IMG/VR virus record: IMGVR_UViG_3300025853_000035
Location: 1-64,000 of that record
Source: a virus
Lineage: Duplodnaviria; Heunggongvirae; Uroviricota; Caudoviricetes
DNA length: 64,000 nt
Reading direction: 5' to 3' (one strand)
Both the position numbers and the translations under genes were made by a program. Positions within the stretch are counted from its first letter, which is position 1. The number at the start of each line of letters is the position of its first letter. Below the pieces are notes generated by a model. The model was not told the origin of the DNA. It did no database searches and saw only the letters and a list, made by a program, of their open reading frames with translations. This document shows, piece after piece, positions 36,003 through 63,453 of this stretch.

Positions 36003-36473
36003 ATGGTTCCAATAACGAGTAATCTGCCCGGCGTTCTGTGCGTCGAAGTGAGTGAACTGGAGCCAGACCCGAACGCCTTATACCGCTGCTGCTTCACCGG
36101 CGGCCGGGATTTCACCGACAAGGATTGGGTCTGGCGCAACCTCTACGAACTGAACGGCTATGCCGAGGTAGGGGCGATCGCCGAGATCGGAATCGGCTGC
36201 GCCACCGGCGTGGATGCCTTGGTGCTGGAATGGGCGATCGCCAAGAACGTGGCGTGGACTCGCTACGTCGCCGATTGGGATCGGTTCGGCACCGCCGCCG
36301 GCTCCATCCGCAACACCGCCATGCTGGAGGACTTCCAGCCGGACTATCTGGGAGTGTTTCCCGGTGGCGTGGGCACGACCCACTGCGCACGAACAGCACG
36401 CAAGCTGGGGATCGAACGCGTGTTCCTTACCCCTGAGATCGATCCCTTCGAAGAGGCTTCCAAATGGGGATGA
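36003..36473 (+). CDS. SLOG/DprA-like Rossmann protein (DUF2493-like)
   Basis: YRCCFTGGRDFTDKDWVWRNL resembles the TGxRD motif of DUF2493/SLOG proteins. The assignment is tentative. Confidence 0.35.
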   Translation: MVPITSNLPGVLCVEVSELEPDPNALYRCCFTGGRDFTDKDWVWRNLYELNGYAEVGAIAEIGIGCATGVDALVLEWAIAKNVAWTRYVADWDRFGTAAGSIRNTAMLEDFQPDYLGVFPGGVGTTHCARTARKLGIERVFLTPEIDPFEEASKWG

Positions 36474-39004: not shown

Positions 39005-39294
39005 GCTTCGAATTGCTCTCACCCGGCCCGCTAGGTGCCATCCTCCACGTCAACCGCCAGTTCATCGCCATGAACGCCAAGGACGGAGGCAACCGCCCCG
39101 TCTACACCCTCAAGCCCAACGGCCCGAACTCGACACCGATCTATGCCCGCGAGGTCTCCGTCGATGGTCCCTCGCGCTGCGTGTTCAGCGCCGACCGGCT
39201 CGCCTGCGGTGCCCATGCTTGGATTGCTATCCCGCCCGGCACCACCCTCGGCCTTCACGATCCGATGACCTTCGAGGAGGCCAAGGCCGCCTGA
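39001..39294 (+). CDS. hypothetical protein (97 aa)
   Basis: ORF only. Confidence 0.4.
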   Translation: MSFELLSPGPLGAILHVNRQFIAMNAKDGGNRPVYTLKPNGPNSTPIYAREVSVDGPSRCVFSADRLACGAHAWIAIPPGTTLGLHDPMTFEEAKAA

Positions 39295-39312
39295 CCTACC
39301 GCTGACCTACCG
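39293..39312. repeat. integrase arm-type repeats (2 copies of TGACCTAC, inverted)
   Basis: ctgacctaccgctgacctacc; reverse complement of the GTAGGTCAG repeats further right. Confidence 0.6.
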
Positions 39313-39437
39313 TTGTCTCCACCTCACCCGTCGTCCGAAAGGCCGGCGGGTGTTTTGTTTTGTGATTCGCGAGCCGCTGAATTTCCCCCATAAGACCCAT
39401 CTTGACCCATGGCGTAACACCGTGAGCCAAGGAAAAG

Positions 39438-39462
39438 TAGGTCAGAAAGTAGGTCAGCGCCA
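39438..39462. repeat. integrase arm-type repeats (2 copies of GTAGGTCAG)
   Basis: aagtaggtcagaaagtaggtcagcg. Confidence 0.6.
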
Positions 39463-39470
39463 AGAAACGA

Positions 39471-39498
39471 AAAGCCCCGCCGGTTAGGGCGGGGCTAT
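39471..39498. terminator. rho-independent terminator-like hairpin
   Basis: AAAGCCCCGCCGGTTAGGGCGGGGCTAT. Confidence 0.5.
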
Positions 39499-39524
39499 AA
39501 ACCCTTGATTTACAAGGGAGAAAA

Positions 39525-39572
39525 TGGTGGACGCACTAGGGTTCGAACCTAGGACCCGCTGATTAAGAGTGA
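39525..39572 (-). other. 3' tRNA fragment (acceptor 3' strand, T-arm and CCA): the attP core
   Basis: The minus strand reads ...GGTCCTAGGTTCGAACCCTAGTGCGTCCACCA. No matching 5' acceptor strand (GGACGCA) lies upstream, so this is a partial tRNA copy as expected of a phage att core. Confidence 0.7.
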
Positions 39573-39696
39573 CAAACTCCTGTTACACGACGAGACGCGC
39601 CGAGACAAGCTGTCTCAAGAAAACCCCGGAAATCCGCCATTTTTGGTCCTTTCTTAGTAACAACGTGGGACATCCTGTTTCATCCAGAAACGACAA

Positions 39697-39762
39697 AAAG
39701 TAGGTCAGGAGTAGGTCAGCCCTCTTGCGGCGGCGCTCCGGGTAGGTCAGAAGTAGGTCAGA
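39697..39762. repeat. integrase arm-type repeats (4 copies of GTAGGTCAG)
   Basis: agtaggtcaggagtaggtcagcc ... ggtaggtcagaagtaggtcagaaac, immediately upstream of int. Confidence 0.6.
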
Positions 39763-39792
39763 AACTCGATCTGCAAACAGGAAGATTTGTCC

Positions 39793-41148
39793 ATGAAGAA
39801 ACAGCTTACGGCGGCCTTCGTCAAGGGCCTCAAGCCCGGTCCGAAGAAACAGGTGATCACTGATTCTGTGGCGGCCAACCTCCGCCTGATCGTCCACCCG
39901 ACCGGGCGAAAGATTTGGGCATGGCAAGGCAAGGTGAACGGTGAGCCGAAGACGGTGACGCTGGGTCAGTGGTTGGAGACCGGAGGCATGGACCTGTCCG
40001 CCGCCCGCGAGCGAGCGACCGAGATCAACACCGCCAAGGTCGAGGGAAGAGCGGTGAGCTTCCTAACGCCCAGCGAGGAGTCATCCGAGCCGGCGATCGA
40101 CCCGCGCGCCTCCCTCACCTGCGACTGGATGTTCGATCAATATATGGCGGCCGAGGGCGAGACGAGGAAGACGGCCAAGGAGAAGCGGACCACCTACAAC
40201 CGGGAGATCAAACCGACGCTGGGTGAGCGGCAGATCGACACCATCACCTACGACGATCTGGCGGCGATCGTGCAGAAGAAGTTTGCGGAAGGGAAGGGGC
40301 CGGCGTCGAACCGGCTCAAGGCGCTCATCGCCCGCTGGTGGAAGTGGGGCGTCTCGCGCGGCCGGGCCGTGACCGGTCTGACCGTCAACCCGGCGATCGA
40401 TCTGGTGAGCCTCGCCGACGAGAACAAGCGTCGTCGCTACCTCACGAATTACGAGATCGGGGTGTTCTTCAAAGGAACCTATTTGGCTCGTGACACCTTC
40501 GCTGAGATGATGACCGTCATCCTCTACACCGGCCTGCGACGGAGCGAGGCGGCCGGTCTGACATGGGACGAGGTCCGCTTCCACGACAACACGATTCTGA
40601 TCAGCGGTGAGCGGATCAAGAACGGGTTGGACCTGCTGCTGTGGATGCCGGACACGGTGGTCGCGATCCTGCGCCAACGCAAGCGCCTCACCGGCAATTA
40701 CAAATACGTCTGGCCGGCCCCGTTCTCGTGGAGGCAGGGCGAGACGGTCGATGAAGACGAGGACACGTCGAAGGAGCTAATCAGCTTCACGAAGCCCATG
40801 AACGCGCTCAACGAGACCTGCCAGAAGCTGGCGGCGAAGGAGCGGAAGACCATGGAGCGGTTCACCGTCCACGATCTGCGTCGCACGCTGGCGACGGGTA
40901 TGCGGGGATTGAGGGATGCCGAGGACAAGCCTCTCATCCTGTCGGACATCGTCGAGCGGGTCATCAACCACATCATCGGCGGCGTCCGGGGCAACTACGA
41001 TCACCACGACTATTTCGCGGAGAAGAAGGCGGCGCTCCGCATTTGGGCGGAGCACCTTGATCCGATCAGGCTGACCGCTCACGCAGCCATTGAGAAAACT
41101 CACTCCGCAGCCAGCGGGTCGCCTGCACGTTCACTGGCTGAGGCATGA
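39793..41148 (+). CDS. int: tyrosine integrase (P4-type)
   Basis: N-terminal arm-binding domain (LTAAFVKGLKPGPKK...ANLRLIVHPTGRKIWAWQGKVNG, DUF4102-like) and a catalytic region with HDLRRTLATGM and a C-terminal Tyr. Adjacent to a tRNA fragment and arm repeats. Confidence 0.9.
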   Translation: MKKQLTAAFVKGLKPGPKKQVITDSVAANLRLIVHPTGRKIWAWQGKVNGEPKTVTLGQWLETGGMDLSAARERATEINTAKVEGRAVSFLTPSEESSEPAIDPRASLTCDWMFDQYMAAEGETRKTAKEKRTTYNREIKPTLGERQIDTITYDDLAAIVQKKFAEGKGPASNRLKALIARWWKWGVSRGRAVTGLTVNPAIDLVSLADENKRRRYLTNYEIGVFFKGTYLARDTFAEMMTVILYTGLRRSEAAGLTWDEVRFHDNTILISGERIKNGLDLLLWMPDTVVAILRQRKRLTGNYKYVWPAPFSWRQGETVDEDEDTSKELISFTKPMNALNETCQKLAAKERKTMERFTVHDLRRTLATGMRGLRDAEDKPLILSDIVERVINHIIGGVRGNYDHHDYFAEKKAALRIWAEHLDPIRLTAHAAIEKTHSAASGSPARSLAEA

Positions 41149-41386
41149 ACTTTCCGTCGCGCCGCCAGCGGTAAAGCGTCTGCCGGCTGATCTTGAGCTT
41201 GGCGCAGATTTCCGCGATCGTAATGATTTCGTCGGGATCAGCATCACGCGCCGGGGTGATAGTGCCGAGGAGAGTGGCCATGCTGAGGAGGCCATTCAAT
41301 TCGGCATCATCAAGGGTGATACCGAGGCCGCTGGCTTTAGCGGCCTCGATCTTCGCACACAGGGAGGTCATGTCGGTCATGCTCAT
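41066..41386 (-). CDS. AlpA-like HTH excisionase / transcriptional regulator
   Basis: ISRQTLYRWRRDGKFMPQPVNVQATRWLRSEFSQWL matches the Phage_AlpA helix-turn-helix signature. Convergent with int. Confidence 0.7.
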   Translation of the reverse strand: MSMTDMTSLCAKIEAAKASGLGITLDDAELNGLLSMATLLGTITPARDADPDEIITIAEICAKLKISRQTLYRWRRDGKFMPQPVNVQATRWLRSEFSQWLRERSA

Positions 41387-41461
41387 GGTCTACCCAGAAT
41401 GACCATCACTGTCAATTCATAATAGCTCTTGGTCGATCATCACGCGCCATCACGTCATTTT

Positions 41462-41530
41462 CCGTCTTGACCCATCGGACAAATCTTCCTATTCGCTTCT
41501 CATCAACAACGACTCGAAGGAGACAGACCG
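41462..41530 (+). promoter_or_regulatory. conserved phage promoter plus leader (family copy)
   Basis: TTGACCCATCGGACAAATCTTCCTATTCGCTTCTCATCAACAACGACTCGAAGGAGACAGACCGATGG. Confidence 0.6.
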
Positions 41531-41920
41531 ATGGCTTTCAAGATCACCAAGACCGACAACGCCCGCGTGATGAAGCTGGCCGGCGAACTCGACGATATGC
41601 GAACCGAGATCAACGACAAGCTCGACGAATGGCGGGGCGAACTGAGCGGCCTGCTCGACGCCCTCAACGAGAAGCGTGAGGAACTGCGTGGCGTGATCGA
41701 GGACATCCAAGCCGAACAGCAGAGCGCCTATGACGACATGTCGGAGCGCTGGCTCGAAGGCGACCGCGCCTCGCCCACCGAAGACTGGATCGGCGCGCTT
41801 GCGGATGCGGAGGCATTGGTCTCCGACGACTTCACGTTCGAACTGCCTGACGAAATGGAATTCGACGACGAGTTCGAAACCCTCAAGGACGAGGGTCTGC
41901 CCACCGAGCCGGAATATTGA
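41531..41920 (+). CDS. highly acidic protein (129 aa); candidate DNA-mimic or anti-restriction protein
   Basis: Strongly acidic composition (D/E-rich C-terminus DDFTFELPDEMEFDDEFETLKDEGLPTEPEY). First gene after int/xis. Confidence 0.45.
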   Translation: MAFKITKTDNARVMKLAGELDDMRTEINDKLDEWRGELSGLLDALNEKREELRGVIEDIQAEQQSAYDDMSERWLEGDRASPTEDWIGALADAEALVSDDFTFELPDEMEFDDEFETLKDEGLPTEPEY

Positions 41921-42001
41921 AACGGCAAAATGGCGGTTGACGAACCGGAAGAATCGTCCTAATTCGACCCCATCAACAACGAATCGAAGGAGACAGACCC
42001 T

Positions 42002-42352
42002 ATGGCTCAGAAGCTCATCCTTGATGACCAGATGGAGGTGCTGCGGCAGAACGGGGCGGTCGCCTCGCGCTCCGGCGACGGCAGCGATCTTCGTCCCGTG
42101 CTCAAGCTCTTCACCCCGGACGGCGCGGCGACGTGGCTTATCTCCGAGATCGATGCCGACGGCGACACGCTGTTCGGTCTGTGCGATCTGGGCCTCGGAG
42201 AACCAGAGCTTGGTTACGTCTCGCTGACCGAGATCAAGTCGATCCGGGGCGGGCTGGGTCTCCCGGTCGAACGGGACATCTCGTTCACCCCGACGATGAC
42301 CATGGCCGAATATACCACCAAGGCTCGCCGGGCCGGCCGGATCGTTCTTTGA
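42002..42352 (+). CDS. DUF2958-like protein
   Basis: LFTPDGAATWLISEIDADGDTLFGLCDLGLGEPELGYVSLTEIKSI resembles DUF2958. Promoter copy at 41922-42001. Confidence 0.4.
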   Translation: MAQKLILDDQMEVLRQNGAVASRSGDGSDLRPVLKLFTPDGAATWLISEIDADGDTLFGLCDLGLGEPELGYVSLTEIKSIRGGLGLPVERDISFTPTMTMAEYTTKARRAGRIVL

Positions 42353-42417
42353 CCGGGCCGCCGGCCACGGTCCTCCTGACCTTGAAGGAATCCGAAGCCT
42401 TGCTCTGGGGCTTCGCC

Positions 42418-42753
42418 ATGATGGGGGACTATGCTCACGAGCCGCCGGACGATGAGACTGATCCGGTCTATCTCCTGCTCAAGGCAGGGTATAGGCCGGA
42501 GCAGTTCGAGGCCGCCTGCAAGCGCCTCCGTCCGATGGCACTCGACGATTATCTGCGTGAGCCGTTCTCGGACCTCGAAAAGATGATCTTGCGGTTGGCG
42601 GTGGAGAACACATCGTGGATCACCACCTACCGCACCCACGCCCCAACCCGTGACTCGCCCATGCTGATCCGTGAAGCATTGACCGCGTTGCGAACCCTCG
42701 CCGCCAAGCTCGAAGACTTCGGCATCGAAGTCAACTACATCCCCAACGATTGA
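42418..42753 (+). CDS. hypothetical protein (starts MMGDYAHEPP)
   Basis: Internal ATG of ORF 42133..42753. Confidence 0.4.
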   Translation: MMGDYAHEPPDDETDPVYLLLKAGYRPEQFEAACKRLRPMALDDYLREPFSDLEKMILRLAVENTSWITTYRTHAPTRDSPMLIREALTALRTLAAKLEDFGIEVNYIPND

Positions 42754-42764: not shown

Positions 42765-43865
42765 ATGTTCGACATCTGTGTATTCGCTGGCCGTATGCGT
42801 CCGCCGACGGCCGCTCATCTGGCCAACATCCGCGCCGGCCTCGCCGCTTCCCAATATGTCTTCGTCATCATCGGCTCGACCGGTGAAGCCCCGCACTTCA
42901 AGAACCCCTTCACGTTCGACGAAGTCCAGACCATGATCCGTGGCTCGCTGTCGGCGGCCGAGAATGATCGCGTCTTCGTCCACGGCGTCCGCGACCGCGA
43001 CAATGACCTTGCGTGGGTCCGCGACGTGCAGAAGATCGTCCACGAACAGGCGACCGCGCTGTCGATCCCCGGCGAGCCGCGTATCGCTCTGGTAGGCTGC
43101 AACAAGGACGGCTCGTCCTATTACCTCAAGCTCTTCCGCCAGTGGGGAAGCATCGGTGTCGAGCCGATCCTGAACGACGGCGAATCGATGTCGGCGACCG
43201 CCATGCGTATGGCGCTCTACGAAGCCGAGGACCCCGGCCGCGTCCTCAAGACGTGGAAGGACCTGTTCGGCGCTTCCTATCTCCCGCACGGCACCTTCTG
43301 GTTCCTGCGCCAGTGGGTGAACACCGAGCACTTCCAGCAGATGCGGGCCGAGGCGCTGTTCATGCGGGACGAACTCAAGAAGTTCCAGCCGAACCCCTAC
43401 ACCGGCCAGCCGCAGCAGCACAATTGCGCCGACTTCTATCTACAGCACGGCGGCGCTGTCCTGCTGGTCAAGCGCGATCGGATGCCCGGCGAAGGGCTGT
43501 GGGCGGTGCCCGGCGGGCACAAGCACGCCTACCAGACGTTCCGCGACGCAGCGCTCGCTGAGCTTGGTCAGGAAACCAGCATCTTCGACCTGAACGAAGC
43601 CATCACGCCCGACGTGATCAACAGCTACATCCGGGGCGACAAGCTGCTCGACAATCCGTGGCGGTCGAACCGCGAAGTGACCGTCTCGGTAGCTTACGGC
43701 GCGCTGCTGCCCGGCAGCTTCACCCGGCCGCTGATCGAAGGCGCTGACGACGCCCGCGAAGCCCGCTGGTGGAACATCGACGAGATCACCCGTGACATGA
43801 TGTTCGAAGACCACTTCAACATCATCGAGGATTTCTCGAACCGCTTCCGCGATCTGACGATCTAA
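42765..43865 (+). CDS. nadM: bifunctional NMN adenylyltransferase / Nudix ADP-ribose pyrophosphatase (NadM-Nudix)
   Basis: N-terminus ICVFAGRMRPPTAAHLANI matches the archaeal-type NMNAT motif GRFQPxH/TxGH. C-terminal Nudix box GGHKHAYQTFRDAALAELGQETS. SD AAGGAG before the ATG. Confidence 0.7.
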   Translation: MFDICVFAGRMRPPTAAHLANIRAGLAASQYVFVIIGSTGEAPHFKNPFTFDEVQTMIRGSLSAAENDRVFVHGVRDRDNDLAWVRDVQKIVHEQATALSIPGEPRIALVGCNKDGSSYYLKLFRQWGSIGVEPILNDGESMSATAMRMALYEAEDPGRVLKTWKDLFGASYLPHGTFWFLRQWVNTEHFQQMRAEALFMRDELKKFQPNPYTGQPQQHNCADFYLQHGGAVLLVKRDRMPGEGLWAVPGGHKHAYQTFRDAALAELGQETSIFDLNEAITPDVINSYIRGDKLLDNPWRSNREVTVSVAYGALLPGSFTRPLIEGADDAREARWWNIDEITRDMMFEDHFNIIEDFSNRFRDLTI

Positions 43866-43877
43866 TCAGGAGACCCC

Positions 43878-45344
43878 ATGAGCTATATCACGACCATCGG
43901 GGAACTGCTGAACCAGCCGATCCTCAACAGCGACACCTACAAGAACAGCCACTGGACGTTCGAGCACCCGCAGTTCACTTCGAGCTACGGCTACATCGAA
44001 GCCCGTAAGGGTGGCGAGTTCAGCGAGGTCATGTTCTTCGGCCTGCAATACCTGCTGCGCTATTACCTGACCCAGCGCGTCACCGACTCGGTGATCGCCC
44101 ACGCCCGCCGCTTCCTCCCGCTGCACGGCGTGCCGTTCAACGAAGAAATGTGGACGACCATCCGCGACAAGCACGATGGCCGGTGGCCGGTGCGGATCAA
44201 GGCGCTTCCAGAGGGCGTCCTCGTCCCGCAGGGCTGTGTCCTTGTCACGGTGGAATCGCTCGACGAGGAATGCGCCGGTGTCGCCGCGTTCGTCGAAACC
44301 CTGCTGCTTCGCGGCGTCTGGCTCCCCACCACGATCGCCACCCGGTCGATGCGCTGGTGGCGTCTGGTCGATCGCTACCTCACCCAGAGCGGCACGCCGG
44401 AGACGGCGGAGTTCAAGGTGGTGGACTTCTCGGCGCGCGGCGTCCGGTCGTCCGAGGACGCAGGCATCTCCGGCATGGCCCATCTCCTGAACTTTCAGGT
44501 GACCGACAATCTGCTTGGCATCCTGTTCGGCCAGAACGCCTACACGACCGAAACCATGCTGGGATATTCGATCCCGGCGACCGAGCACTCGGTCACCACG
44601 TCGTGGGGCAAGGAAAACGAGCAGGCGTTCTTCGAGCACATTCTCGAAGTCCATGGCCAGACCGTGAACCCGCTGGGCGGCCGGTCGCCGGTGTCGGTGG
44701 TGATCGACACCTACGATCAGGACAACGCCGTCCGCATGTGGCTGACGCCGGCCGAGAAGGGCGGTTGCGGCCTCCGCGAGAAGCTGGAAGCGTCGAACAT
44801 GTGCGTCGTGCTGCGGCCGGACTCGGGTGATCCGATCATCAACGTCGTCCACCTGCTCGACCTGATCGGAAGCCTGACGGGCTGGACGGTCAACGAGAAG
44901 GGCTTCCGCGTCCTCCCGGATTTCGTTCGCGTCATTCAGGGCGACGGCATCCACGAAGAATCGCTGCGCCGCATCCTCCAGCGTGTGGTCTACCACACTT
45001 GGTCGATCGACAACCTGACCTTCGGTTCGGGCGGTGGTCTGATGATGCACGACGTGGAGCGCGACACCCACCGCTTCGCCATGAAGACCTCGGAAGTGGT
45101 CATCGGCGGTATCACCAGCGCCGTCCGCAAGGAGGTCAAGACCGATCCGTCCAAGGCATCCAAGGCCGGGCGCTTCGCAGTGGTGATGGAGAACGACGTG
45201 CTGATCACCATCCCGGAAGACGAACTCAACGGTCGTCTCAACTATCTGCGGACGGTCTACGAGGACGGCGAACTGGTCGCCCCTGAGACGTTCGATCAGG
45301 TCCGGGAGCGCGCTCGCCAGTGGCGCGTCATCGGGCACGGCTAA
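43878..45344 (+). CDS. nadV: nicotinamide phosphoribosyltransferase (NadV/NAMPT)
   Basis: N-terminus LNQPILNSDTYKNSHW matches the NAMPT DT/SYKxxH signature. 488 aa. Confidence 0.8.
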   Translation: MSYITTIGELLNQPILNSDTYKNSHWTFEHPQFTSSYGYIEARKGGEFSEVMFFGLQYLLRYYLTQRVTDSVIAHARRFLPLHGVPFNEEMWTTIRDKHDGRWPVRIKALPEGVLVPQGCVLVTVESLDEECAGVAAFVETLLLRGVWLPTTIATRSMRWWRLVDRYLTQSGTPETAEFKVVDFSARGVRSSEDAGISGMAHLLNFQVTDNLLGILFGQNAYTTETMLGYSIPATEHSVTTSWGKENEQAFFEHILEVHGQTVNPLGGRSPVSVVIDTYDQDNAVRMWLTPAEKGGCGLREKLEASNMCVVLRPDSGDPIINVVHLLDLIGSLTGWTVNEKGFRVLPDFVRVIQGDGIHEESLRRILQRVVYHTWSIDNLTFGSGGGLMMHDVERDTHRFAMKTSEVVIGGITSAVRKEVKTDPSKASKAGRFAVVMENDVLITIPEDELNGRLNYLRTVYEDGELVAPETFDQVRERARQWRVIGHG

Positions 45345-45349
45345 TGGAA

Positions 45350-45377
45350 GGGCCGCCCTCCGGGGCGGCCTTTTTTA
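45350..45377 (+). terminator. rho-independent terminator
   Basis: GGGCCGCCCTCCGGGGCGGCCTTTTTTAT. Confidence 0.75.
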
Positions 45378-46416: not shown

Positions 46417-47352
46417 ATGTGCGGAACTTGTGGAAACCTTGCTCACGACGATCTCGACGATGACATCGGCGACATCTTCGGCACGGGCCAGATGAGCACC
46501 GAGGACGCCGCACGCGCTGCTGAGTTCGCCAAGGCTGTCTCGGACAACACCCGCCCGGCCGCCGGCCCGGTTCTCTATTGGGACACCTGTGGCTCGTGCC
46601 GTGGGTCGGGCAACTTCATCACCTATTCCGGCCGCGTCGGTGGGGCCTGCTTCAAGTGCAAGGGCAAGGGACAGGTTCCCTTCAAGACCTCACCGGAGAA
46701 GCGGGCGGCTGATGCCGAGCGCAAGCGCAAGAACCTCGCCACCAAGCTCGAAGCCTTCGTCACCGCCCACGCGGACGAATGGGCATGGATCGCGACGGAG
46801 GCTCCCAAGTTCGACTTCGCCAAGAGCATGTTCGACAAGCTGCTCAAGGATGGTGAACTGACGCCCGGCCAGTTGGCAGCGGTGCAGAAGCTCATCGCCC
46901 GCGAACAGGCCCGCACTGAGGCGGAGGCCGCCCAGAAGGAAGCCGCGCCGGTGATCGAGGAAGCATCACTCGCCAAGATCGAGGAGGCATTCGCCGCTGC
47001 GATCGCCCGCGACATCGCGCGTCCCAAGCTGCGCCTCGATACCTTCATGTTCTCGCCGGCCCGGTCGGGCGTGAACGCCGGGTCGATCTACGTCAAACAC
47101 CTCACGGAAACGAACCGTGATGGGGAGAAGCGCTACCTCGGCAAGATCACCGATGGGAAGTTCCTCAAGTCGTGGGGCTGCACCCCTGAGGAAGAGCAGC
47201 GGATCATTGCCGCTGCCATGGACCCGCTGGCCGCCGCCACTGCCTATGGCCGCCGTGAGGGCAGGTGTTCGTTCTGCGGGCGCAAACTCACGAAGTCGGA
47301 ATCAATCGACCGGGCGATAGGCCCGATCTGTGCAGAGAATCTAGGTTGGTAA
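46417..47352 (+). CDS. Cys-cluster (zinc-binding) protein, 311 aa
   Basis: Promoter/SD copy at 46351-46416. CGTCGN...CGSCRGSG..CFKCKGKG and C-terminal CSFCGRK...GPICA. Confidence 0.5.
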   Translation: MCGTCGNLAHDDLDDDIGDIFGTGQMSTEDAARAAEFAKAVSDNTRPAAGPVLYWDTCGSCRGSGNFITYSGRVGGACFKCKGKGQVPFKTSPEKRAADAERKRKNLATKLEAFVTAHADEWAWIATEAPKFDFAKSMFDKLLKDGELTPGQLAAVQKLIAREQARTEAEAAQKEAAPVIEEASLAKIEEAFAAAIARDIARPKLRLDTFMFSPARSGVNAGSIYVKHLTETNRDGEKRYLGKITDGKFLKSWGCTPEEEQRIIAAAMDPLAAATAYGRREGRCSFCGRKLTKSESIDRAIGPICAENLGW

Positions 47353-52322: not shown

Positions 52323-53564
52323 TTAGCCCTTGACGTTCAAGACCTGCCGGAGCCGGTGCTTGATCTCGACCAGATCGTCCTGAGCGGCCATGACCGCACC
52401 GATCGGCTTGTAGGCGGCCGGACTCTCGTCCAGCACATCCGCATCAAGGCGGGCCTCGATCCCCTTCATGGCCTCGGCGTGCTGCTCCATGGTGATCAGC
52501 GCCTTGGCCTTGGTCCGGCTCATGGTCCGCCCGGCTCCGTGGCTGCACGAGTGGAACGAGTTCGGGTTGCCCTTGCCCTCCACGATGAAGCTGCCGGTGC
52601 CCATGGAGCCGGGGATGATCCCCAAGGTGCCCTCACGAGCCTGCACGGCACCCTTGCGGGTCACCCAGACATTCTCGCCGTAGTGCGACTCTCGGGTCAC
52701 ATAGTTGTGGTGGCAGTTGACCGCCATCTGCTCGGACATGAACGGGGGAAGGGTCTGACGCAGCACCCGGAGGACAGCCGCCATCATCTCCTTCCGGTTC
52801 TCCATGGCGAACTCCTGTGCCCACTCGACCGCCTCGCAGTAGTCGTCGTAGACCTCGGTGTGCTCTACCAGATAGGACAGGTCCTGATCCGGCAGATAGT
52901 CCGCGATGTGATAGCGGTGCATCTCCTCCTTCGCCTTCTCGATGAAGTAGGTGCCGATCGCGTTGCCGATACCGCGCGAGCCGGAGTGCAGCATCACCCA
53001 GACCCGGTTCTCCTCGTCGAGGCAAAGCTCGATGAAGTGGTTGCCGGTGCCGAGCGATCCCAGATGCTGGGTCGGAAGCCGACGCTGGGCGATCTTAGGG
53101 TGCTTGGCGATGATCGCGTCATAACCCTTCTCCAGATACTTCCAGCGCTCGACGACGGAGGCCGGCGGGTTGCCCCATGAGCCGGGATCACGCCCGCCAC
53201 GAATCTGATCCATGGTTCCGCGACCGTGAGGAACCGCCGCCTCGATCATCCCACGGATATGGGATAGGCTGTCCGGGAGATCGTCGGCGGTCAGGGAGAG
53301 GCGAAGCGCCATCATCCCACAGCCAATATCGACGCCGACCGCCGCCGGGACGATCGCGCCCTTGGTGGCGATCACGGTGCCTACGGTCGAACCCTTGCCG
53401 GCGTGAGCGTCAGGCATCACGGCGACGTGCTTGTGGACGAAAGGCATCCGCGCCATGTTCTCGATCTGCTGGATGGCCTCAGCCTCGAACGGATAGCCCT
53501 CCGGCTCCCACAGCTTGACCAGCTTCTTGCGGCCGAAACTGTCCTCAACCTGATGAACGCGCAT
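52323..53564 (-). CDS. rtcB: RtcB RNA ligase (3'-phosphate/2',3'-cyclic phosphate RNA-splicing ligase)
   Basis: 413 aa. MPDAHAGKGSTVGTV, HSGSRGIGN and NCHHNY motifs typical of RtcB. Confidence 0.85.
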   Translation of the reverse strand: MRVHQVEDSFGRKKLVKLWEPEGYPFEAEAIQQIENMARMPFVHKHVAVMPDAHAGKGSTVGTVIATKGAIVPAAVGVDIGCGMMALRLSLTADDLPDSLSHIRGMIEAAVPHGRGTMDQIRGGRDPGSWGNPPASVVERWKYLEKGYDAIIAKHPKIAQRRLPTQHLGSLGTGNHFIELCLDEENRVWVMLHSGSRGIGNAIGTYFIEKAKEEMHRYHIADYLPDQDLSYLVEHTEVYDDYCEAVEWAQEFAMENRKEMMAAVLRVLRQTLPPFMSEQMAVNCHHNYVTRESHYGENVWVTRKGAVQAREGTLGIIPGSMGTGSFIVEGKGNPNSFHSCSHGAGRTMSRTKAKALITMEQHAEAMKGIEARLDADVLDESPAAYKPIGAVMAAQDDLVEIKHRLRQVLNVKG

Positions 53565-53754: not shown

Positions 53755-56700
53755 TTAAAGGCCCCGGACCTTCATCGCCTTCACGTCCTCTTCGGACATG
53801 ATCTCGATGTCGAGTCCCTTGCTTTCCTTGAGGTTGGCGCGGACCTGCGAGAGCGGCGGGAAGATGAACACGCGGCTCTGGTTGGTCTGACCGTCAAGCT
53901 TCATCTTGACCTCCCGAGCGCCGAACCAGTCGCCCACCACCGTCGAGATGTCGTCGAAGCTGGTCTTGGCCTTGTCCGACGAGAACAAGAAGCGGACATA
54001 ATCCGACACCGCTGCTCGCAGGTCCTTGGCGTAGACCATCGTCTCGCGATCGTCGTTCAGTTCGATCGACGGGAAACGGTTCTCGTCGCTCGTCTCGTAA
54101 AGGCCGGACTTGACCAGTTCGAGCATGAACTTCTGCACGCCCGACAGCGTCTCGATCTGCTGCTTCTGGAGGTGGTCGGTCTTGGGCGGCGTGAACAGGC
54201 TGGCGAAGGTGCCCTTGACCGGCTTCCAGTGGAGCAGGTCGTGCAGCATGGCTTGCAGGCCACCCTTCTTGTCCATCTGCTCGCGCATCAGGCCGAAGAA
54301 CTCCAGATCGCCTTGGCGGGCATCCGAGCAGCGCAGCACGAAGAAGCGACGTTCGTCCTTGAGCGAGGCAGGGACCACCCAATCGTTGTTCGAGATCAGC
54401 GCGAGGCGCGTGTAGTTCTCGGACTGGATCGGGTCATAGCCCTTCTTTTCGATCAGCACCGACTTGTTGGTGATCATGTCCTTGAGGACACCTTCCGCCT
54501 GCGGGTCAGCGGCCCAGAAGGCTTCTTCGCAGACCATGAGCAGGGCGGTTTCAAGGTGGCCGTTGAACTGACCGACGATCTGCTTCCGCTGGCTCACGGT
54601 GATGCCGTGGAAGCCAAGCAGCTTGTTGATGAAGTCGAACAGGGTGGACTTACCCGTGCCCTTACCGCCGGTGATGACCAGCGTCGAACCCGGCTTGGCC
54701 TCCGGCTTCTGGAACAGCATCGCCAGCCACGTCATCAGCCACTCGAAATACTCGTCGTTCGACTCGCAGATGTTCTCGTAGATGTGACCACGCAGCATCG
54801 ACCAGTCACCGGCGACCGGTTCGTCCTTGTTGTCGAGGATGTTCTCCCACGTCGTCGGGACCGGCTCATACGGCCAGCCACGGAACAGGTTGTAGATGTC
54901 CTTGGCGACGCGGCGGCCGGGAGCGAACACCACCTGACGGTAGGTGCGGCGCTTGTCCCATTCCAGCCACAGGTCGAACCCGGCCAGCTTCTTCGACTGC
55001 TTGCCCTCGGCGATCCAGATCACGCGGTTCTTCTCGAACAGCTTCACGTCTCCCTGCGTTTCGAAGATCACGTCATCATCGGCGGAGCGCGGCTCCACCA
55101 GAATCTTGACGCCGCCGGACGTGCGGATCACTGCATAGCGCCGGTTGAACGCACGCAGCATGGTTTCCTCGGAATCGCCGAAGTCAAGATCGTCGTCCTC
55201 GAACTCCGGCTCCTCGGCCTCGTCGGTCGTAGGGGCGTCGGCGCGCGGCGTCGGCTTCTTCGGCTTGACCGGCTCTTCCTCCTCTTCCTCGTCCTCCTCC
55301 AGTTCGAACAGATAGTCCTTGTTGGTGAGGTCGGCCGGCGTGATCAATTCCTGCTCGATCAGTTCCTTGAGGTAGTCGAGGCGATCGCGGCCGGAGCAGG
55401 CGTTGTGGGTGCAGTTGAAGGTGAAGCCGCCTTCATAGCCGTCTTCCAGATTGTCGGAAGCGTTGACCACGAAGGTGCCGCCGCCGCCGAAGCTGGAGTG
55501 CTCGGCCTCGAACGGGCATTCGACGTGGACGCCGGCCTTGTTACCCCGGCCTTCGCGGATGAAGTCGCCACCGATCACATCCTCAAGCATCGCCTGCACA
55601 TCGAAGCGCTTGGCGTGCTTGATCGACCAGCCCTTGAGGTTGAAACCGCCGCTGGTGATGTAGCGGTTTGCGTCGTCCTCGTCGCCGTCATCCGCTCCAC
55701 CGGCCGCCGTGAAGGCGTTGCTGGCCACGGCGCTACGCTTGTTGTCGCGGCCCCGGCGCATCTTGACCCGGTCGAACTTGTCGAGGTCCAGCGGCTCGCC
55801 GCAGACCACCCACGAACCGAACGCCTTGTCCTTCGAGGCGTGGCGGGGCAGGTAGAAGAGGCGGGCAGGGTCTACGCACTTCTCATCGAAGAAGAGATCG
55901 AGCGCGGTGCAGAAGCCAGCATAGCGTTCCTTCCACTCGTCGATCGCATCCTTCTGCGAGCCGCCGCGCTTGGCGAACACGAAGGCTTCCTTGAGCGGAA
56001 ATACCGCACGGAACTTCGGCATCGGCTTATGCTGGACGAGGATGACGACGCCGTCTTCCGAGTGGTGGGCGTCATCCAGAATCGTCAGTTCCTCGACGAT
56101 CGCCGGCAGCACACCCTTCTTCTTGATCAGGTAGTCGCGGACCGCTTCCTCTTCGACCTCGGATGCCTCGGCCCACTTCATGAAGTGGTCGCGCTTGATG
56201 ACCGACGTGTTCTTGAGGTGGCTGTGGGTGGTGTAGATCACCGCCTCCAAACCATGCTGCTGGATCGTCCGCATCACGTCGTCGAGCGGCGCACCGGAGT
56301 CGAGATCGACGCCGAGGATGTGGTTGGCGATCATGGCGACGGCCTTGCGGGCACCGTTCGCGGACTGTCCTTGCAGGAAGCAGGGACCGTCCTTCTGGCC
56401 TTCCTTGTGATCCTGCAACATCGTCTCGAACTGGCCGAAGGTGCTGGACACCTCCTTCCACTTGCCCTGCGCTTCATCGCGGCGGCGGCCGGTCATGAGC
56501 GTGATGTTTGTCATGGTGCCCGGCGTCTGGATGTCGAGGTCCTGCGGGAGATACCAGTTCAGGCCGTCGAGATTGACCTTGCCCTTGCTATCGAGGAAGA
56601 CCGAGAGCGGGCACAGGTGCAGGCCGCTCTTCTGCCCGGAGACAGGATCGCCGTCGAGCATGTAGATCATACCGCCGGACACGTCGAACGAAGGCTGAGG

Positions 56701-56913
56701 CTCGACCACGTCGGGATTACCCGCGACGAAGATGCCGACAGCATCGCCGGTGTCAGTGACCAGATCGATCCACGGGTCGTTGGCATTTGACGCCCACGCG
56801 CCGACTTGCAGGAGATCATCGCTCGTGAACTCGTTCCCATCAGCATCGGAAACGGTGATCGCGCCGGTCGTGCGATCGAACAGATCGCAGATGAATTTGG
56901 TGTATAGAGCCAT
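53755..56913 (-). CDS. DNA primase/helicase (P4/D5-family NTPase C-terminal domain)
   Basis: 1052 aa. Walker A VITGGKGTGKSTL and Walker B FFVLRCSD in the C-terminal half, consistent with a phage/plasmid primase P4-type C-terminal domain. Central poly-acidic linker (EEDEEEEEEP). Confidence 0.65.
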   Translation of the reverse strand: MALYTKFICDLFDRTTGAITVSDADGNEFTSDDLLQVGAWASNANDPWIDLVTDTGDAVGIFVAGNPDVVEPQPSFDVSGGMIYMLDGDPVSGQKSGLHLCPLSVFLDSKGKVNLDGLNWYLPQDLDIQTPGTMTNITLMTGRRRDEAQGKWKEVSSTFGQFETMLQDHKEGQKDGPCFLQGQSANGARKAVAMIANHILGVDLDSGAPLDDVMRTIQQHGLEAVIYTTHSHLKNTSVIKRDHFMKWAEASEVEEEAVRDYLIKKKGVLPAIVEELTILDDAHHSEDGVVILVQHKPMPKFRAVFPLKEAFVFAKRGGSQKDAIDEWKERYAGFCTALDLFFDEKCVDPARLFYLPRHASKDKAFGSWVVCGEPLDLDKFDRVKMRRGRDNKRSAVASNAFTAAGGADDGDEDDANRYITSGGFNLKGWSIKHAKRFDVQAMLEDVIGGDFIREGRGNKAGVHVECPFEAEHSSFGGGGTFVVNASDNLEDGYEGGFTFNCTHNACSGRDRLDYLKELIEQELITPADLTNKDYLFELEEDEEEEEEPVKPKKPTPRADAPTTDEAEEPEFEDDDLDFGDSEETMLRAFNRRYAVIRTSGGVKILVEPRSADDDVIFETQGDVKLFEKNRVIWIAEGKQSKKLAGFDLWLEWDKRRTYRQVVFAPGRRVAKDIYNLFRGWPYEPVPTTWENILDNKDEPVAGDWSMLRGHIYENICESNDEYFEWLMTWLAMLFQKPEAKPGSTLVITGGKGTGKSTLFDFINKLLGFHGITVSQRKQIVGQFNGHLETALLMVCEEAFWAADPQAEGVLKDMITNKSVLIEKKGYDPIQSENYTRLALISNNDWVVPASLKDERRFFVLRCSDARQGDLEFFGLMREQMDKKGGLQAMLHDLLHWKPVKGTFASLFTPPKTDHLQKQQIETLSGVQKFMLELVKSGLYETSDENRFPSIELNDDRETMVYAKDLRAAVSDYVRFLFSSDKAKTSFDDISTVVGDWFGAREVKMKLDGQTNQSRVFIFPPLSQVRANLKESKGLDIEIMSEEDVKAMKVRGL

Positions 56914-62757: not shown

Positions 62758-62833
62758 TGGCACGGGTGGTGGGACTCGAACCCACGTTGCACGGTTTTGG
62801 AGACCGGCCGAATAGCCGCTATCTTACACCCAT
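62758..62833 (-). tRNA. tRNA-Trp (CCA)
   Basis: Manual cloverleaf: acceptor ATGGGTG/CACCCGT, T-arm GTGGGTTCGAGTCCCAC, anticodon loop CTCCAAA, encoded CCA. Confidence 0.6.
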
Positions 62834-62842
62834 GTGAAACGC

Positions 62843-62926
62843 TGGAGCCGCCCACAGGGATCGAACCTGCGTCCTTTCGGAACCTCCGGGTTGCAACCGG
62901 GTGCCTTACCTCTCGGCCAAGGCGGC
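62843..62926 (-). tRNA. class II (Ser-like body) tRNA with apparent GCA anticodon
   Basis: Acceptor GCCGCCT/GGGCGGC, Ser-like D-arm GGCCGAGAGGTAAGGC, 14-nt variable arm, T-arm GCAGGTTCGATCCCTGT, CCA. The anticodon region CCGGTTGCAACCGG is palindromic; the most plausible loop TTGCAAC gives GCA. Confidence 0.5.
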
Positions 62927-62933
62927 TCATATC

Positions 62934-63020
62934 TGGAGGAGAGTGAGGGGATCGAACCCTCCCAGCCTTTCGGCTACCTTCGCTTAGCAAGCGAGTGCGT
63001 TACCACTCCGCCAACTCTCC
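62934..63020 (-). tRNA. tRNA-Ser (GCT)
   Basis: Acceptor GGAGAGT/ACTCTCC, D-arm GGCGGAGTGGTAACGC, loop TTGCTAA, long variable arm, T-arm GGGTTCGATCCCC, CCA. Confidence 0.65.
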
Positions 63021-63027
63021 ATTAAAC

Positions 63028-63100
63028 TGGATGCCCGGCCACGGATCGAACGTGGGTTTCATGCTTCAAAGGCACGGGTCTTACCATTAGACGAACGGGC
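63028..63100 (-). tRNA. tRNA-Gln (TTG)
   Basis: Anticodon stem CGTGC/GCATG, loop CTTTGAA, T-arm CCACGTTCGATCCGTGG, CCA. Confidence 0.55.
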
Positions 63101-63102
63101 AT

Positions 63103-63180
63103 TGGTTCTCCGCCGAGGACTCGAACCTCTATCTTTCCGCATTCAGAGTGCGGCGGCCGGACCTGCCAGCTAAGCGGAGA
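63103..63180 (-). tRNA. tRNA-Gln (CTG)
   Basis: Acceptor TCTCCGC/GCGGAGA, anticodon stem CCGCA/TGCGG, loop CTCTGAA, T-loop GGTTCGAGTCC, CCA. Confidence 0.55.
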
Positions 63181-63198
63181 ACAGGATCAGGACTTAGG

Positions 63199-63272
63199 GG
63201 TGACCTGTGGGTTTCGAACCCACCATCTCCGGCACCACAAGCCGGCGCATCAACCTACTCTGCCTAGGCCAC
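63199..63272 (-). tRNA. tRNA-His (GTG), no encoded G-1
   Basis: Acceptor GTGGCCT/AGGTCAC, anticodon stem CCGGC/GCCGG, loop TTGTGGT, T-arm GTGGGTTCGAAACCCAC. Position -1 is U and no CCA is encoded. Confidence 0.6.
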
Positions 63273-63369
63273 ACCTAAATCCTGAACTGCATCCCATCGT
63301 CCTCATGTGACCAGATATGACCGATAGGGCGGTCATATTGCCCATATATGGACGATAGAACGGTCAAAC

Positions 63370-63446: not shown

Positions 63447-63453
63447 ATAACTC

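Follow-up and report, generated by a model that had tools for sequence, protein, structure and literature searches.

A probable NARP2-type NAD+ salvage operon with a non-canonical Nudix domain in a Lacusarx/XM05-like phage

We analysed a 64,000-nucleotide stretch of viral DNA (hereafter, the window) and conclude, with a probability of roughly 0.7, that it carries a NARP2-type NAD+ salvage operon of a ~151-kb Lacusarx/XM05-like phage, in which the Nudix half of the NadM-Nudix protein is not a canonical ADP-ribose pyrophosphatase. In the proposed pathway, NadV would convert nicotinamide and PRPP to NMN, and the N-terminal NMNAT domain of the NadM-Nudix protein would convert NMN and ATP to NAD+. 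Nicotinamide, the substrate for NadV, is what NADase immune effectors leave, and NAD+ would be kept available to the phage even where the host pool is hydrolysed by a TIR-, SIR2- or DSR-type defence. One possible advantage of the altered Nudix domain is that it may avoid a futile cycle, in that it would not cleave the dinucleotide just made by its own NMNAT half. The enzyme activities and the counter-defence role of the pair are predictions from sequence, and the latter draws on one heterologous experiment with the genes of phage KVP40. The features are listed in Table 1.

Table 1. Features of the NAD+ gene region (positions are those of the window)
Feature	Coordinates	Strand	Evidence and details
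Acidic 129-aa protein	41531..41920	+	pI 4.05; preceded by its own copy of the cassette at 41456-41530
Promoter-like and leader cassette	41926..42001	+	TTGACG, 17 nt, TAATTC, then ATCAACAACGAATCGAAGGAGACAGACC with RBS; read directly
DUF2958 protein, 116 aa	42002..42352	+	Pfam PF11171, E 6e-39, full length
Conserved 134-aa protein	42349..42753	+	TTG start; overlaps the DUF2958 stop by 4 nt
NadM-type NMN adenylyltransferase + Nudix (NatV-like), 366 aa	42765..43865	+	Pfam, PHROG, structure alignment; ATG at 42765 with AAGGAG ahead of it, stop at 43865
Nucleotidyltransferase motif T15-A16-A17-H18 (GRMRPPTAAH), in place of HxGH	42807..42818	+	Alignment
Non-canonical Nudix box GGHKHAYQTFRDAALAELGQETSI	43512..43583	+	Alignments
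NadV / NAMPT-type nicotinamide phosphoribosyltransferase, 488 aa	43878..45344	+	Pfam, NCBIfam, PHROG, structures; preceded by AGGAGA
Intrinsic-terminator-like hairpin and T-run, end of unit	45346..45377	+	Folding; GGGCCGCCC-TCCG-GGGCGGCC then TTTTTT; kept in L010

Assignment of the gene pair to NARP2

The NadM-Nudix and NadV genes are adjacent and co-directional, as described in the initial annotation, and are separated by 12 nt. The combination corresponds to that of Vibrio phage KVP40, whose NadV (Nampt) and NatV (Nmnat-Nudix) constitute NARP2 (Lee et al. 2017, as cited by Osterman et al.). The NadV encoded in the window is 64% identical to the Nampt of Erythrobacter phage vB_EliS-L02 (L02), which is labelled 'Nmnat-associated' in Table S2 of Osterman et al. 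(2024 preprint, 10.1101/2024.02.11.579819). By its similarity, it belongs to the Nmnat-associated clade and not to that of the Adps-associated Namat. The Nmnat homologue required for NARP2 is present in the same genome, immediately 5′ of NadV, and no Adps gene was seen adjoining NadV. The pathway had thus been named correctly, but it is not new, because the L02 relative was already catalogued as NARP2.

Two parts of the initial description need to be changed. NAD+ was said to be rebuilt from ADP-ribose; this is the chemistry of NARP1 (Adps and Namat), which starts from ADP-ribose via ADPR-PP and uses nicotinamide, whereas NARP2 makes NAD+ from PRPP, nicotinamide and ATP (10.1101/2024.02.11.579819). 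The two pathways end in the same product and are proposed to counter defence by the same logic, and Namat and Nampt are homologous. The pair was also said to overcome Thoeris, DSR, SIR2-HerA and similar defences. The preprint tested NARP2 on two systems only, type I Thoeris and DSR2, and the wider list belongs to NARP1; Nampt and Nmnat of KVP40 abolished defence by type I Thoeris and DSR2 and raised NAD+ (10.1101/2024.02.11.579819).

The comparison with KVP40, also suggested initially, gave 34% identity to NatV over the full length, and same-clade NadV relatives are ∼40% identical. The two phages encode the same two enzyme families with the same predicted chemistry. They differ in that natV of KVP40 has no NadV within 3 kb, whereas the genes of the window are adjacent; in that NatV has HNGH and an E/RE/EE box, as against TAAH and Q/AE/QE; and in that the window has a 134-aa protein gene and a DUF2958 gene coupled upstream, as well as an integrase and an attP-like site. 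The closest cultured relatives are Sphingobium phage Lacusarx and the Erythrobacter phages L02 and XM05 (64–67% identity for NadV and 50–56% for NadM). These have the same order of a ∼130-aa gene, NadM-Nudix and NadV, with DUF2958 further 5′ in XM05 and L02. Unlike the window, all three have the canonical E/RE/EE box. Their NMNAT motif is HAGH in XM05 and Lacusarx and a different degenerate form, MRARPFGPQH, in L02. No integrase lies beside the module in XM05 or L02, and the recombinase of Lacusarx is ∼3 kb downstream of it.

Alternatively, the pair could be a general auxiliary metabolic module whose NAD+ supply serves phage DNA replication and nucleotide metabolism in any infection, with no specific selection by NAD+-depleting immunity. 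This is the published interpretation of the L02 orthologues and, via the citations of the L02 paper, of KVP40, where the pathway was earlier viewed as simply boosting NAD+ for phage replication. Since PRPP is its starting point, NARP2 increases NAD+ in defence-free cells as well, and the module is found mainly in large phages rich in metabolic genes. Against this, the KVP40 genes abolished the two defences named above, and the phage has another NAD/ADPr-linked gene in the vicinity, a YAcAr SLOG-family gene (36003-36473) predicted to act on ADPr-derived signals. We regard a purely auxiliary role as possible but rather unlikely. The auxiliary and counter-defence roles are compatible, so this alternative differs from NARP2-type counter-defence in emphasis more than in mechanism.

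Conservation of the NadV and NMNAT active sites

NadV has the Pfam domains NAMPT_N and NAPRTase, scores 453 bits on NCBIfam NF006629 (cut-off 405), and matches PHROG 448 (E 9e-129) and solved NAMPT structures (E 1e-86 to 2.5e-93). Residues Y21, F184, R187, D210 and H237 correspond to Y18, F193, R196, D219 and H247 of human NAMPT, and R313, D315, G355, D356 and R395 to R311, D313, G353, D354 and R392. The GGG at 385-387 (including G386) matches human G383/384. All the mapped active-site residues are therefore kept, among them the Asp that confers nicotinamide specificity and the His that is autophosphorylated; the catalytic roles of these residues are general knowledge of the human enzyme. NadV looks catalytically competent.

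The NadM-Nudix protein aligns end to end with crystallised enzymes of this type (residues 1-355 with 2QJT, E 7e-35; residues 5-359 with 2QJO, E 1e-30) and matches PHROG 395 (E 4e-54) and Pfam NUDIX (40.5 bits). These enzymes, from Francisella tularensis (2QJT) and Synechocystis (slr0787, 2QJO), have the same two-domain architecture, but carry GRFQPFH(K/L)GH and the canonical box GGF..(E)......RE L.EE, both of which the window protein lacks. All eight NCBIfam PRK05379 models score below threshold (best NF003786, 227.9 bits against a cut-off of 397), and Pfam CTP_transf_like (PF01467) does not match the protein; precomputed matches to this family are also missing in the sub-clade.

The first NMNAT motif is TAAH. 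In the nucleotidyltransferase superfamily, Thr can stand for His, as in TNGH of PPAT; in the window protein, Ala also takes the place of the Gly of (H/T)xGH. Throughout the sub-clade the motif keeps the form (T/S)xxH, with R10, P13 and the final His invariant, and the second motif, SxTxxR, is present as S143-A-T145-A-M-R148 (SATAMR). Compared with a 97%-identical allele, the gene has 32 synonymous against 11 non-synonymous codon differences and is under purifying selection. The NMNAT domain looks catalytically competent; we infer this activity solely from lineage-wide conservation, because of the TAAH motif, the sub-cut-off NCBIfam scores and the missing CTP_transf_like match. Loss of catalytic residues had been named initially as evidence that would speak against the proposal. 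NadV keeps all of them and the NMNAT domain keeps R10, P13, H18 and SxTxxR, but three Nudix signature residues are gone.

The altered Nudix box

In the Nudix box, Q257 (43533), A265 (43557) and Q269 (43569) stand for the signature E, R and E, and E266 and E270 are kept, so that the sequence G-HKHAY-Q-TFRDAAL-AE-L-G-QE-T-S-I does not match the canonical Gx5Ex7REUxEExGU. Among 10 diverse phage NatV-like proteins, that of the window alone departs from E/RE/EE. In a sister clade of 15 members, Q/DE/QE is invariant, and the three box columns are the only ones of 366 that are fixed differently between this clade and 56 canonical relatives. The Nudix domain is equally conserved in the two groups (mean pairwise identity 0.67 in the Q/DE/QE clade vs 0.64 in the canonical one), and Pfam NUDIX scores drop to 'weak' in the Q/DE/QE proteins. 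In the window protein, the family-conserved residues outside the box are all kept (D296, P298, W299, R300, S301, D328, D329, A330, E348 and D349). As three hallmark residues are replaced, ADP-ribose-cleaving activity cannot be assumed, and the initial call of an 'ADP-ribose pyrophosphatase' is quite possibly wrong. We found no study of the Nudix box of phage NatV-type proteins in the literature searched. A tblastn search of the window for a compensating stand-alone Nudix gene, using the small Nudix gene of L013, returned only the NadM gene itself.

The Q/AE/QE and D/RE/EE (P0001) haplotypes co-circulate within one phage species. On the lineage of the window, signature residues account for 3 of the 4 derived amino-acid changes (P = 5e-6), and 8 of the 21 derived nucleotide changes fall inside 42 nt (permutation p = 8e-5). 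We rejected an artefact or an engineered edit, because the exact protein (P0124) occurs on 16 public contigs, the box occurs in four further cluster members, and synonymous changes adjoin the three replacements. Nor is straightforward gene conversion from one of the sampled Q/DE/QE donors supported, since the 42-nt tract has 8 differences from P0008, the nearest such donor, and 10 from P0001. Ancestral retention, an unsampled donor and selection are candidate origins, and the Q/AE/QE state is either convergent with, or inherited from, the clade-wide Q/DE/QE.

Precedents for a perturbed signature come from NrtR and TRPM2 NUDT9-H, in which ADPR is bound but not hydrolysed. The NrtR protein Slr1690 has a kcat of 1.4e-4 per s, and restoring the signature gave a 600-fold gain; NrtR Nudix domains superpose on that of NadM at 1.4–1.5 Å. 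Human TRPM2 NUDT9-H (box RILRQE, with Q at the second Glu position) is inactive as a hydrolase. As in the window protein, these are ADPRase-type Nudix domains with a substituted signature helix and the rest of the ligand pocket retained. The partner domain differs, being an NMNAT enzyme in the window, a DNA-binding domain in NrtR and a channel in TRPM2, and the first and third Glu are kept in the window protein, unlike in human NUDT9-H. Through this change, hydrolysis of ADPR/NAD(H) is most likely reduced or lost, whereas a folded ligand-binding domain is kept. As a counterpoint, the retained E266 and E270 are the first and third Glu of REUxEE, which have been described as the most critical in NUDT9.

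It is conceivable, though on balance doubtful, that the Nudix domain is still an efficient ADP-ribose/NADH pyrophosphatase and the protein a canonical bifunctional NatV that tolerates Q/A/Q. Besides the invariance of E266 and E270 and the retention of all the family-conserved residues outside the box, Nematostella NUDT9-H, with the R-to-A box AEFGEE, is a robust ADPRase, and the catalytic base of Nudix enzymes often lies outside the box. However, three otherwise near-invariant positions were changed together and are fixed in a whole clade, a perturbed signature in NrtR, whose Nudix domains are structurally the closest to that of NadM, cuts kcat by orders of magnitude, and the inactive human NUDT9-H shares the Q at the second Glu position. 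The weak Pfam scores point in the same direction.

A less probable variant of reduced hydrolysis, which we consider unlikely, is that the Nudix domain is a non-catalytic ligand-binding module, either an ADPR sensor that tunes the NMNAT to NADase attack or a sink for ADPR-derived immune signals. The switch is limited to the metal-binding helix, with the rest of the domain conserved and purifying selection undiminished, and NrtR and TRPM2 likewise evolved from ADPRases into ADPR sensors. NARP2 is also reported to impose a metabolic cost through being permanently active, so that making it conditional would be of benefit. However, the conservation could merely reflect oligomerisation of NadM-Nudix through the Nudix domain, the allele of the window lacks the Asp265 of the clade, and the co-circulating D/RE/EE haplotype indicates that a near-canonical state is also viable. 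More speculatively still, and improbably, in a Lacusarx-like sub-lineage a specific switch of three residues, maintained by selection (E to Q, R to D/A, E to Q), could have turned the Nudix domain of the NARP2 Nmnat from an ADP-ribose hydrolase into a non-hydrolysing binder of ADPR or ADPR-derived signals. Such a binder would turn on NAD+ synthesis when host NADases fire or would sequester ADPR-based immune signals, and the switched and near-canonical alleles would be alternative counter-defence settings under balancing selection.

That the genes are decaying or inactive remnants, as the non-canonical TAAH and Q/AE/QE motifs and the sub-threshold NCBIfam scores of the fused protein might suggest, is in effect excluded by the observed conservation: both frames are open with a 3:1 excess of synonymous over non-synonymous codon differences, 15 diverged relatives do not vary at the variant residues, 16 contigs from three sources carry the identical protein, and NadV is fully canonical.

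Transcription unit and upstream genes

Promoter and terminator were called by direct reading and folding. We relied on these because a consensus promoter/terminator scan found no promoters and did not list the obvious terminator at the end of the pair. The terminator hairpin has a folding energy of −26.1 kcal/mol (z = −4.0; matched by none of 200 shuffled sequences) and is retained in an 89%-identical relative (L010), so the strong terminator reported initially stands. The 28-nt leader core is present exactly twice in the window, against 0 expected, and the promoter/leader cassette is kept in L010 and L020-L023. We take the cassette ahead of DUF2958 to be a putative promoter and the proposed start of the unit. 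Downstream of it, the 4-nt overlap is followed by gaps of 11 and 12 nt, and an RBS precedes each gene.

The initial annotation had placed the pair in a post-integrase operon that includes the acidic and DUF2958 proteins. Both are present as neighbours as described, but an AlpA-like HTH gene on the opposite strand (41066-41386) lies between the integrase and the NAD+ genes. Because of this gene and the duplicated cassette, which precedes both the acidic and the DUF2958 gene, the unit is more likely to start before DUF2958 and to comprise DUF2958, the 134-aa protein, NadM and NadV, from ∼41936 to the terminator. The acidic gene could possibly be co-transcribed by read-through. Its product has 39 D+E against 13 K+R and only a weak match, to PHROG 4068 (unknown function).

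The DUF2958 gene is syntenic, 5′ of NadM, in XM05, L02, L010, L013 and L015; we found no functional information on this family in the literature searched. The 134-aa protein is encoded directly 5′ of NadM in most of the Lacusarx-like relatives checked, with homologues of 37–91% identity at this position in XM05, L02, Lacusarx and L010-L013, but not in L015. None of its 64 homologues has a Pfam domain. Its AF2 model is confident (pLDDT 95.3, pTM 0.89), and a fold search gave no informative match. Tightly coupled and confidently folded, the protein is a candidate third component.

Source phage and integration module

The source genome is a siphophage that is recurrent in metagenomes, and its host is probably a sphingomonad or a related alphaproteobacterium. 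A 150,792-bp contig, assembled twice with different start points, includes the window at 100% identity. The window contains terminase, primase-helicase, RtcB and a cluster of 11 tRNAs; RtcB and the tRNAs are RNA-repair-linked genes in the vicinity of the NAD+ operon. The phage has an integration module consisting of an integrase, which is missing at the corresponding position in XM05 and L02, and an attP-like site. By eye only, the attP core reads as the 3′-half of tRNA-Lys(CUU); Rfam gave no tRNA match to it and ARAGORN no call. A prophage in a bacterial chromosome was rejected, because phage genes flank the integrase on both sides, the attP-like site is intact and the 150,792-bp contig exists. 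Among species-representative bacterial genomes, a search for close relatives gave only 34%-identical matches in Acetobacteraceae MAGs. Since identical proteins are public on 16 contigs for NadM-Nudix and 17 for NadV, the sequence is natural.

Discussion

As a close relative is already in the published NARP2 catalogue, the operon mainly confirms that NARP2 reaches phages of sphingomonads with an integration module. The new observation is variation in the fused Nudix domain, for which 'ADP-ribose pyrophosphatase' is the routine annotation: one entire clade carries a fixed alternative signature, and alleles that differ at exactly these box residues coexist within one abundant environmental phage. 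'Bifunctional' annotations should hence not be transferred without a check of the motif. Should hydrolysis be changed or lost through the switch, NAD+ synthesis and ADPR/NAD(H) cleavage would be seen to trade off against each other within NARP2, and the co-circulating haplotypes would provide natural paired alleles for testing the contribution of the Nudix domain to counter-defence.

The NadM-Nudix and NadV genes

Both open reading frames of the NAD+ pair lie where the initial annotation had placed them, adjacent and on the plus strand, and each matches its family. For NadM-Nudix, an alternative TTG start at 42750 is used by no homologue. The protein's alignment with 2QJT (E 7e-35) and 2QJO (E 1e-30), both crystal structures of bifunctional NadM-Nudix enzymes, runs end to end, and the protein also matches PHROG 395 and Pfam NUDIX. 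NadV has Pfam NAMPT_N and NAPRTase domains, scores 453 bits on NCBIfam NF006629 (above the cut-off of 405) and matches PHROG 448 (E 9e-129) as well as solved bacterial and human NAMPTs (E 1e-86 to 2.5e-93). The exact proteins were found on public contigs (JGI/IMG, Logan, ENA), 16 times for NadM-Nudix and 17 times for NadV. The acidic protein and the DUF2958 protein named in the same annotation are also real.

Features of the window discussed in the text
Feature	Coordinates	Strand	Remarks
Large terminase	4107-5870	-	
YAcAr (YspA/cpYpsA-related SLOG family) protein	36003-36473	+	Pfam E 7e-10; ~6 kb upstream of the NAD+ genes
GTAGGTCAG repeats	39291-39761		8 exact copies, four pairs, within 470 bp
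tRNA-Lys(CUU)-like segment	~39524-39572	-	~50 nt, 3' half
Tyrosine integrase	39787-41148		just upstream of the NAD+ genes
AlpA-like HTH gene	41066-41386	opposite	between integrase and NAD+ genes
Cassette, first copy	41456-41530		before acidic gene
Acidic protein	41531-41920		pI 4.05
Cassette, second copy	41926-42001		before DUF2958 gene
DUF2958 protein	42002-42352		E 6e-39
134-aa protein	42349-42753	+	immediately upstream of NadM
NadM-Nudix	42765-43865	+	366 aa; ATG start, AAGGAG ahead of it
NadV	43878-45344	+	488 aa; AGGAGA ahead of start
311-aa protein	46417-47352	+	C-terminal DUF6011 (E 4e-14); PHROG 4046 (E 6e-79)
RtcB RNA ligase	52323-53564	-	E 1e-122
DUF5906 primase-helicase	53755-56913	-	
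11 tRNA genes	62758-63978	-	Trp, Cys, Ser x2, Gln x2, His, Thr, Leu x3

We aligned NadV to human (6TAC) and Xanthomonas (7YQO) NAMPT and observed that all the mappable active-site residues are conserved (Y21, F184, R187, D210, H237, R313, D315, G355, D356, the GGG loop and R395). In human NAMPT, D219 is the nicotinamide-specificity residue and H247 the autophosphorylated His; their equivalents in NadV are D210 and H237. The NMNAT domain carries the SxTxxR motif as SATAMR. Its first motif reads GRMRPPTAAH instead of GRFxPFHxGH, with R10, P13 and H18 invariant across the family. This (T/S)xxH form is stable throughout the sub-clade, which also lacks precomputed PF01467 hits, and in this nucleotidyltransferase superfamily Thr is accepted at the first His position. 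The window protein is likely to have NMNAT activity.

In an L02-like clade the NMNAT motif is more degenerate, (M/L)R(A/G)RPFGxQH, without the first His/Thr and without the conserved Gly (L002:8457-9533 of phage vB_EliS-L02, P0039, P0042, P0048, P0052, P0053, P0056, P0058, P0060, P0061, P0064 and P0066); the Nudix box of this clade is canonical, P0053 having RE/QE. In another relative, P0068 (306 aa, on a 2.5-kb ENA contig), the first half shares 81% identity with the window NMNAT domain, and a Pfam ADP-ribosylglycohydrolase hit (PF03747) stands in place of Nudix; the alternatives are a domain swap and a chimeric assembly.

The Nudix box is non-canonical

The Nudix box consensus is Gx5Ex7REUxEExGU. 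FtNadM has G-FLECD-E-TIAQAII-RE-L-F-EE and KVP40 NatV has G-HKHEK-E-TFLDAAI-RE-L-Q-EE; the window protein has G-HKHAY-Q-TFRDAAL-AE-L-G-QE, with Q257, A265 and Q269 where the signature has E, R and E, and it keeps E266 and E270. Given these replacements, the ADP-ribose pyrophosphatase assumed in the initial annotation is not supported and may well be wrong.

Among 130 tabulated relatives, nearly all have E/RE/EE at positions 257/265-266/269-270, and an invariant Q/DE/QE is present in 15 metagenomic and prophage relatives (53-64% identity). In an NJ tree, the window protein and its two nearest relatives are nested inside the Q/DE/QE clade. We compared these 15 proteins with 56 canonical Lacusarx-like ones, taking a column as fixed at 85% or more in each group. 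Only columns 257, 265 and 269 of 366 were fixed differently. All other conserved residues are common to both groups (including D296, P298, W299, R300, S301, D328, D329, A330, E348 and D349), and within the Nudix domain the variant clade has a mean pairwise identity of 0.67, versus 0.64 for the canonical one. From these alignments, we infer that the three-column change is a targeted, selectively maintained switch and not decay of the domain. The literature searched contains no discussion of phage NatV-type proteins whose Nudix box departs from the consensus.

A Q/DE/QE-type phage (L013/L014:13731-14036) has, two genes downstream of its NadV, an extra gene for a small protein of 101 aa whose Nudix box (GGHVNDGETVEEAASREWLEETSI) is canonical; the window has no counterpart.

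Two alleles co-circulate

The cluster of >90% identity that contains the window protein consists of two haplotypes. Q257/A265/Q269/D292 is found in the window protein (P0124), P0125, P0129 and P0131, with the same box in fragment P0127, and D257/R265/E269/E292 in P0001, P0126, P0130 and P0132. Between the window gene and that of P0001 there are 50 differences in 1101 nt (codon differences: 32 synonymous, 11 non-synonymous). When P0002 (86% identical) is used for polarisation, no more than four amino acid changes are derived in the window lineage: D257Q (GAC to CAG), R265A (CGT to GCT), E269Q (GAA to CAG) and E292D. The chance of at least three of four changes falling on the five signature residues is 5e-6, and a 42-nt stretch holds 8 of the 21 derived nucleotide changes (permutation p = 8e-5). 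No obvious donor for this tract was found among the sampled Q/DE/QE genes; therefore, its origin may lie in an ancestral state retained with mosaicism, in conversion from a donor outside the sample or in convergent selection.

Possible consequences of the Nudix switch

Strongly reduced ADPR/NAD(H) hydrolysis by the window Nudix domain is the reading we favour, at a probability of roughly 55-60%, because of precedents in NrtR and human TRPM2. The Nudix domains of NrtR and NadM superpose at 1.4-1.5 A; with a perturbed signature, NrtR loses ADPRase activity and still binds ADPR as an effector, and for NrtR Slr1690 the kcat is 1.4e-4 per s, with a gain of 600-fold on restoring the signature. The NUDT9-H domain of human TRPM2 (box RILRQE) binds ADPR and has no hydrolytic activity. 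Against these precedents, largely retained hydrolysis is distinctly less probable; it would fit the presence in the window protein of both the first and the third Glu, described as critical in NUDT9, and the robust ADPRase activity of Nematostella NUDT9-H, whose AEFGEE box has R changed to A. The small remainder falls to an altered specificity.

If hydrolysis is reduced, the Nudix half would, plausibly in our view, spare the dinucleotide freshly made by its own NMNAT half. The NadM Nudix domain is described as cleaving NAD+ and thereby regulating its level (Iyer et al.). More speculatively, the window domain could be an ADPR sensor or sponge.

Transcription unit and terminator

Directly 3' of the NadV stop is a hairpin, GGGCCGCCC-TCCG-GGGCGGCC, followed by six T (-26.1 kcal/mol, z-score -4.0; 0 of 200 shuffles folded as well). 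The consensus terminator scan did not pick it up. Its folding and its conservation in an 89%-identical relative support the strong terminator proposed at the end of the pair. The "post-integrase operon" proposed with it is unlikely, because the opposite-strand AlpA-like gene separates the integrase from the NAD+ genes. From 42002 the packing is tight: the DUF2958 and 134-aa frames overlap by 4 nt, and gaps of 11 nt to NadM and 12 nt to NadV precede the terminator. Therefore, the best reading is a four-gene unit of DUF2958, the 134-aa protein, NadM-Nudix and NadV; read-through from the acidic gene into this unit is possible.

A ~75-nt cassette is present in exactly two copies in the window, and its 28-nt core occurs only twice in 64 kb. 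It consists of TTGAC(C/G), 17 nt, TA(T/A)TTCG and then ATCAACAACGAnTCGAAGGAGACAGACC, and is conserved in relatives; from this pattern we infer a promoter-like element with a leader. Related sequences lie 3' of NadV in XM05 and L011. The 89%-identical relative has an extra 90-aa gene between the acidic and DUF2958 genes (L010:8871-9143), absent from the window (~41920-42002), suggesting that the duplicated cassette is the site of a small indel hotspot.

Neighbouring genes

In XM05, L02, Lacusarx and four metagenomic relatives, a syntenic homologue of the 134-aa protein (37-91% identity) directly precedes NadM, and this position is conserved in most Lacusarx-like phages checked. A profile search gave 64 homologues, apparently all inside this phage group; none has a Pfam domain, and the protein has no PHROG family. 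Its AF2 model is very confident (pLDDT 95), with no informative match in PDB or BFVD. We regard it as a candidate third component of the NAD+ module.

SLOG domains of viruses have been predicted to degrade or sense cADPR-type immune signals (Iyer et al. 2022), and the YAcAr gene is a candidate second NAD/ADPr-linked counter-defence gene. For DUF2958, no functional report was found in the literature searched. The 311-aa DUF6011 protein has Cys-rich zinc-ribbon-like motifs; most relatives checked conserve it at the second gene downstream of NadV.

Phage genome and integration module

The terminase, primase-helicase, RtcB and tRNA genes establish that this is phage DNA, and RtcB with the tRNA cluster is consistent with repair or replacement of tRNAs cut by host anticodon nucleases. 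Among cultured phages, its nearest relatives are XM05 and vB_EliS-L02 of Erythrobacter and Lacusarx of Sphingobium, siphophages of 130-152 kb, in which NadV is 64-67% identical and the NadM-NadV order unchanged. Window 32765-53865 matches a stretch of a 150,792-bp ENA metagenome contig at 100% identity. Contigs of exactly this length, with differing start points, came out of two assemblies; this suggests that the genome is complete and either circular or permuted.

Upstream of the integrase, the GTAGGTCAG repeats (0.2 copies expected) flank a segment that, read by eye, is the 3' half of a tRNA-Lys(CUU), with anticodon loop CTCTTAA, T-arm GGTTCGAACC, acceptor end and CCA. ARAGORN and Rfam called no tRNA there, as expected for a partial one. 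A 47-nt core of the segment also adjoins the integrase in relative L013 (20034-20080), and the arrangement appears attP-like. A related phage with a Q/DE/QE NadM is apparently integrated in Sphingobium sp. MK2 (L015, JAZDXA010000009.1, 15859-21125), its integrase being followed by glycogen-metabolism genes (alpha-amylase/CBM48 and glycogen synthase); this points to lysogeny in the Lacusarx-like group. Lacusarx itself tested non-lysogenic/virulent (Lacusarx genome paper). The window phage is probably temperate.

Relation to known NAD+ reconstitution pathways

NARP2 consists of phage Nampt and Nmnat and converts nicotinamide to NMN and then NAD+, using PRPP and ATP; rebuilding NAD+ from ADPR and nicotinamide, as initially proposed for the window pair, is the chemistry of NARP1 (Adps and Namat; 10.1101/2024.02.11.579819). 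In the same preprint, type I Thoeris and DSR2 were the defences used to test the KVP40 pair, which raised NAD+ even without a defence system, and NARP2 was reported in about 1.1% of sequenced phage genomes. Its Table S2 lists the vB_EliS-L02 Nampt as 'Nmnat-associated', and the pair is annotated in both the Lacusarx and L02 genome papers; the NARP2-type call for this Nampt and Nmnat pair is therefore correct but already known for the phage group. Thus, the initial interpretation holds for the family, but not for the substrates, the Nudix assumption or the operon description. L02 is counted as NARP2 in the published table despite its degenerate NMNAT motif, and its predicted Nmnat activity deserves checking.

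On the sequence evidence, an abundant environmental phage carries a genuine, intact NARP2-type NAD+ salvage operon, and what is new here is the altered Nudix signature, the polymorphism of that signature between alleles and the 134-aa gene coupled to the pair.
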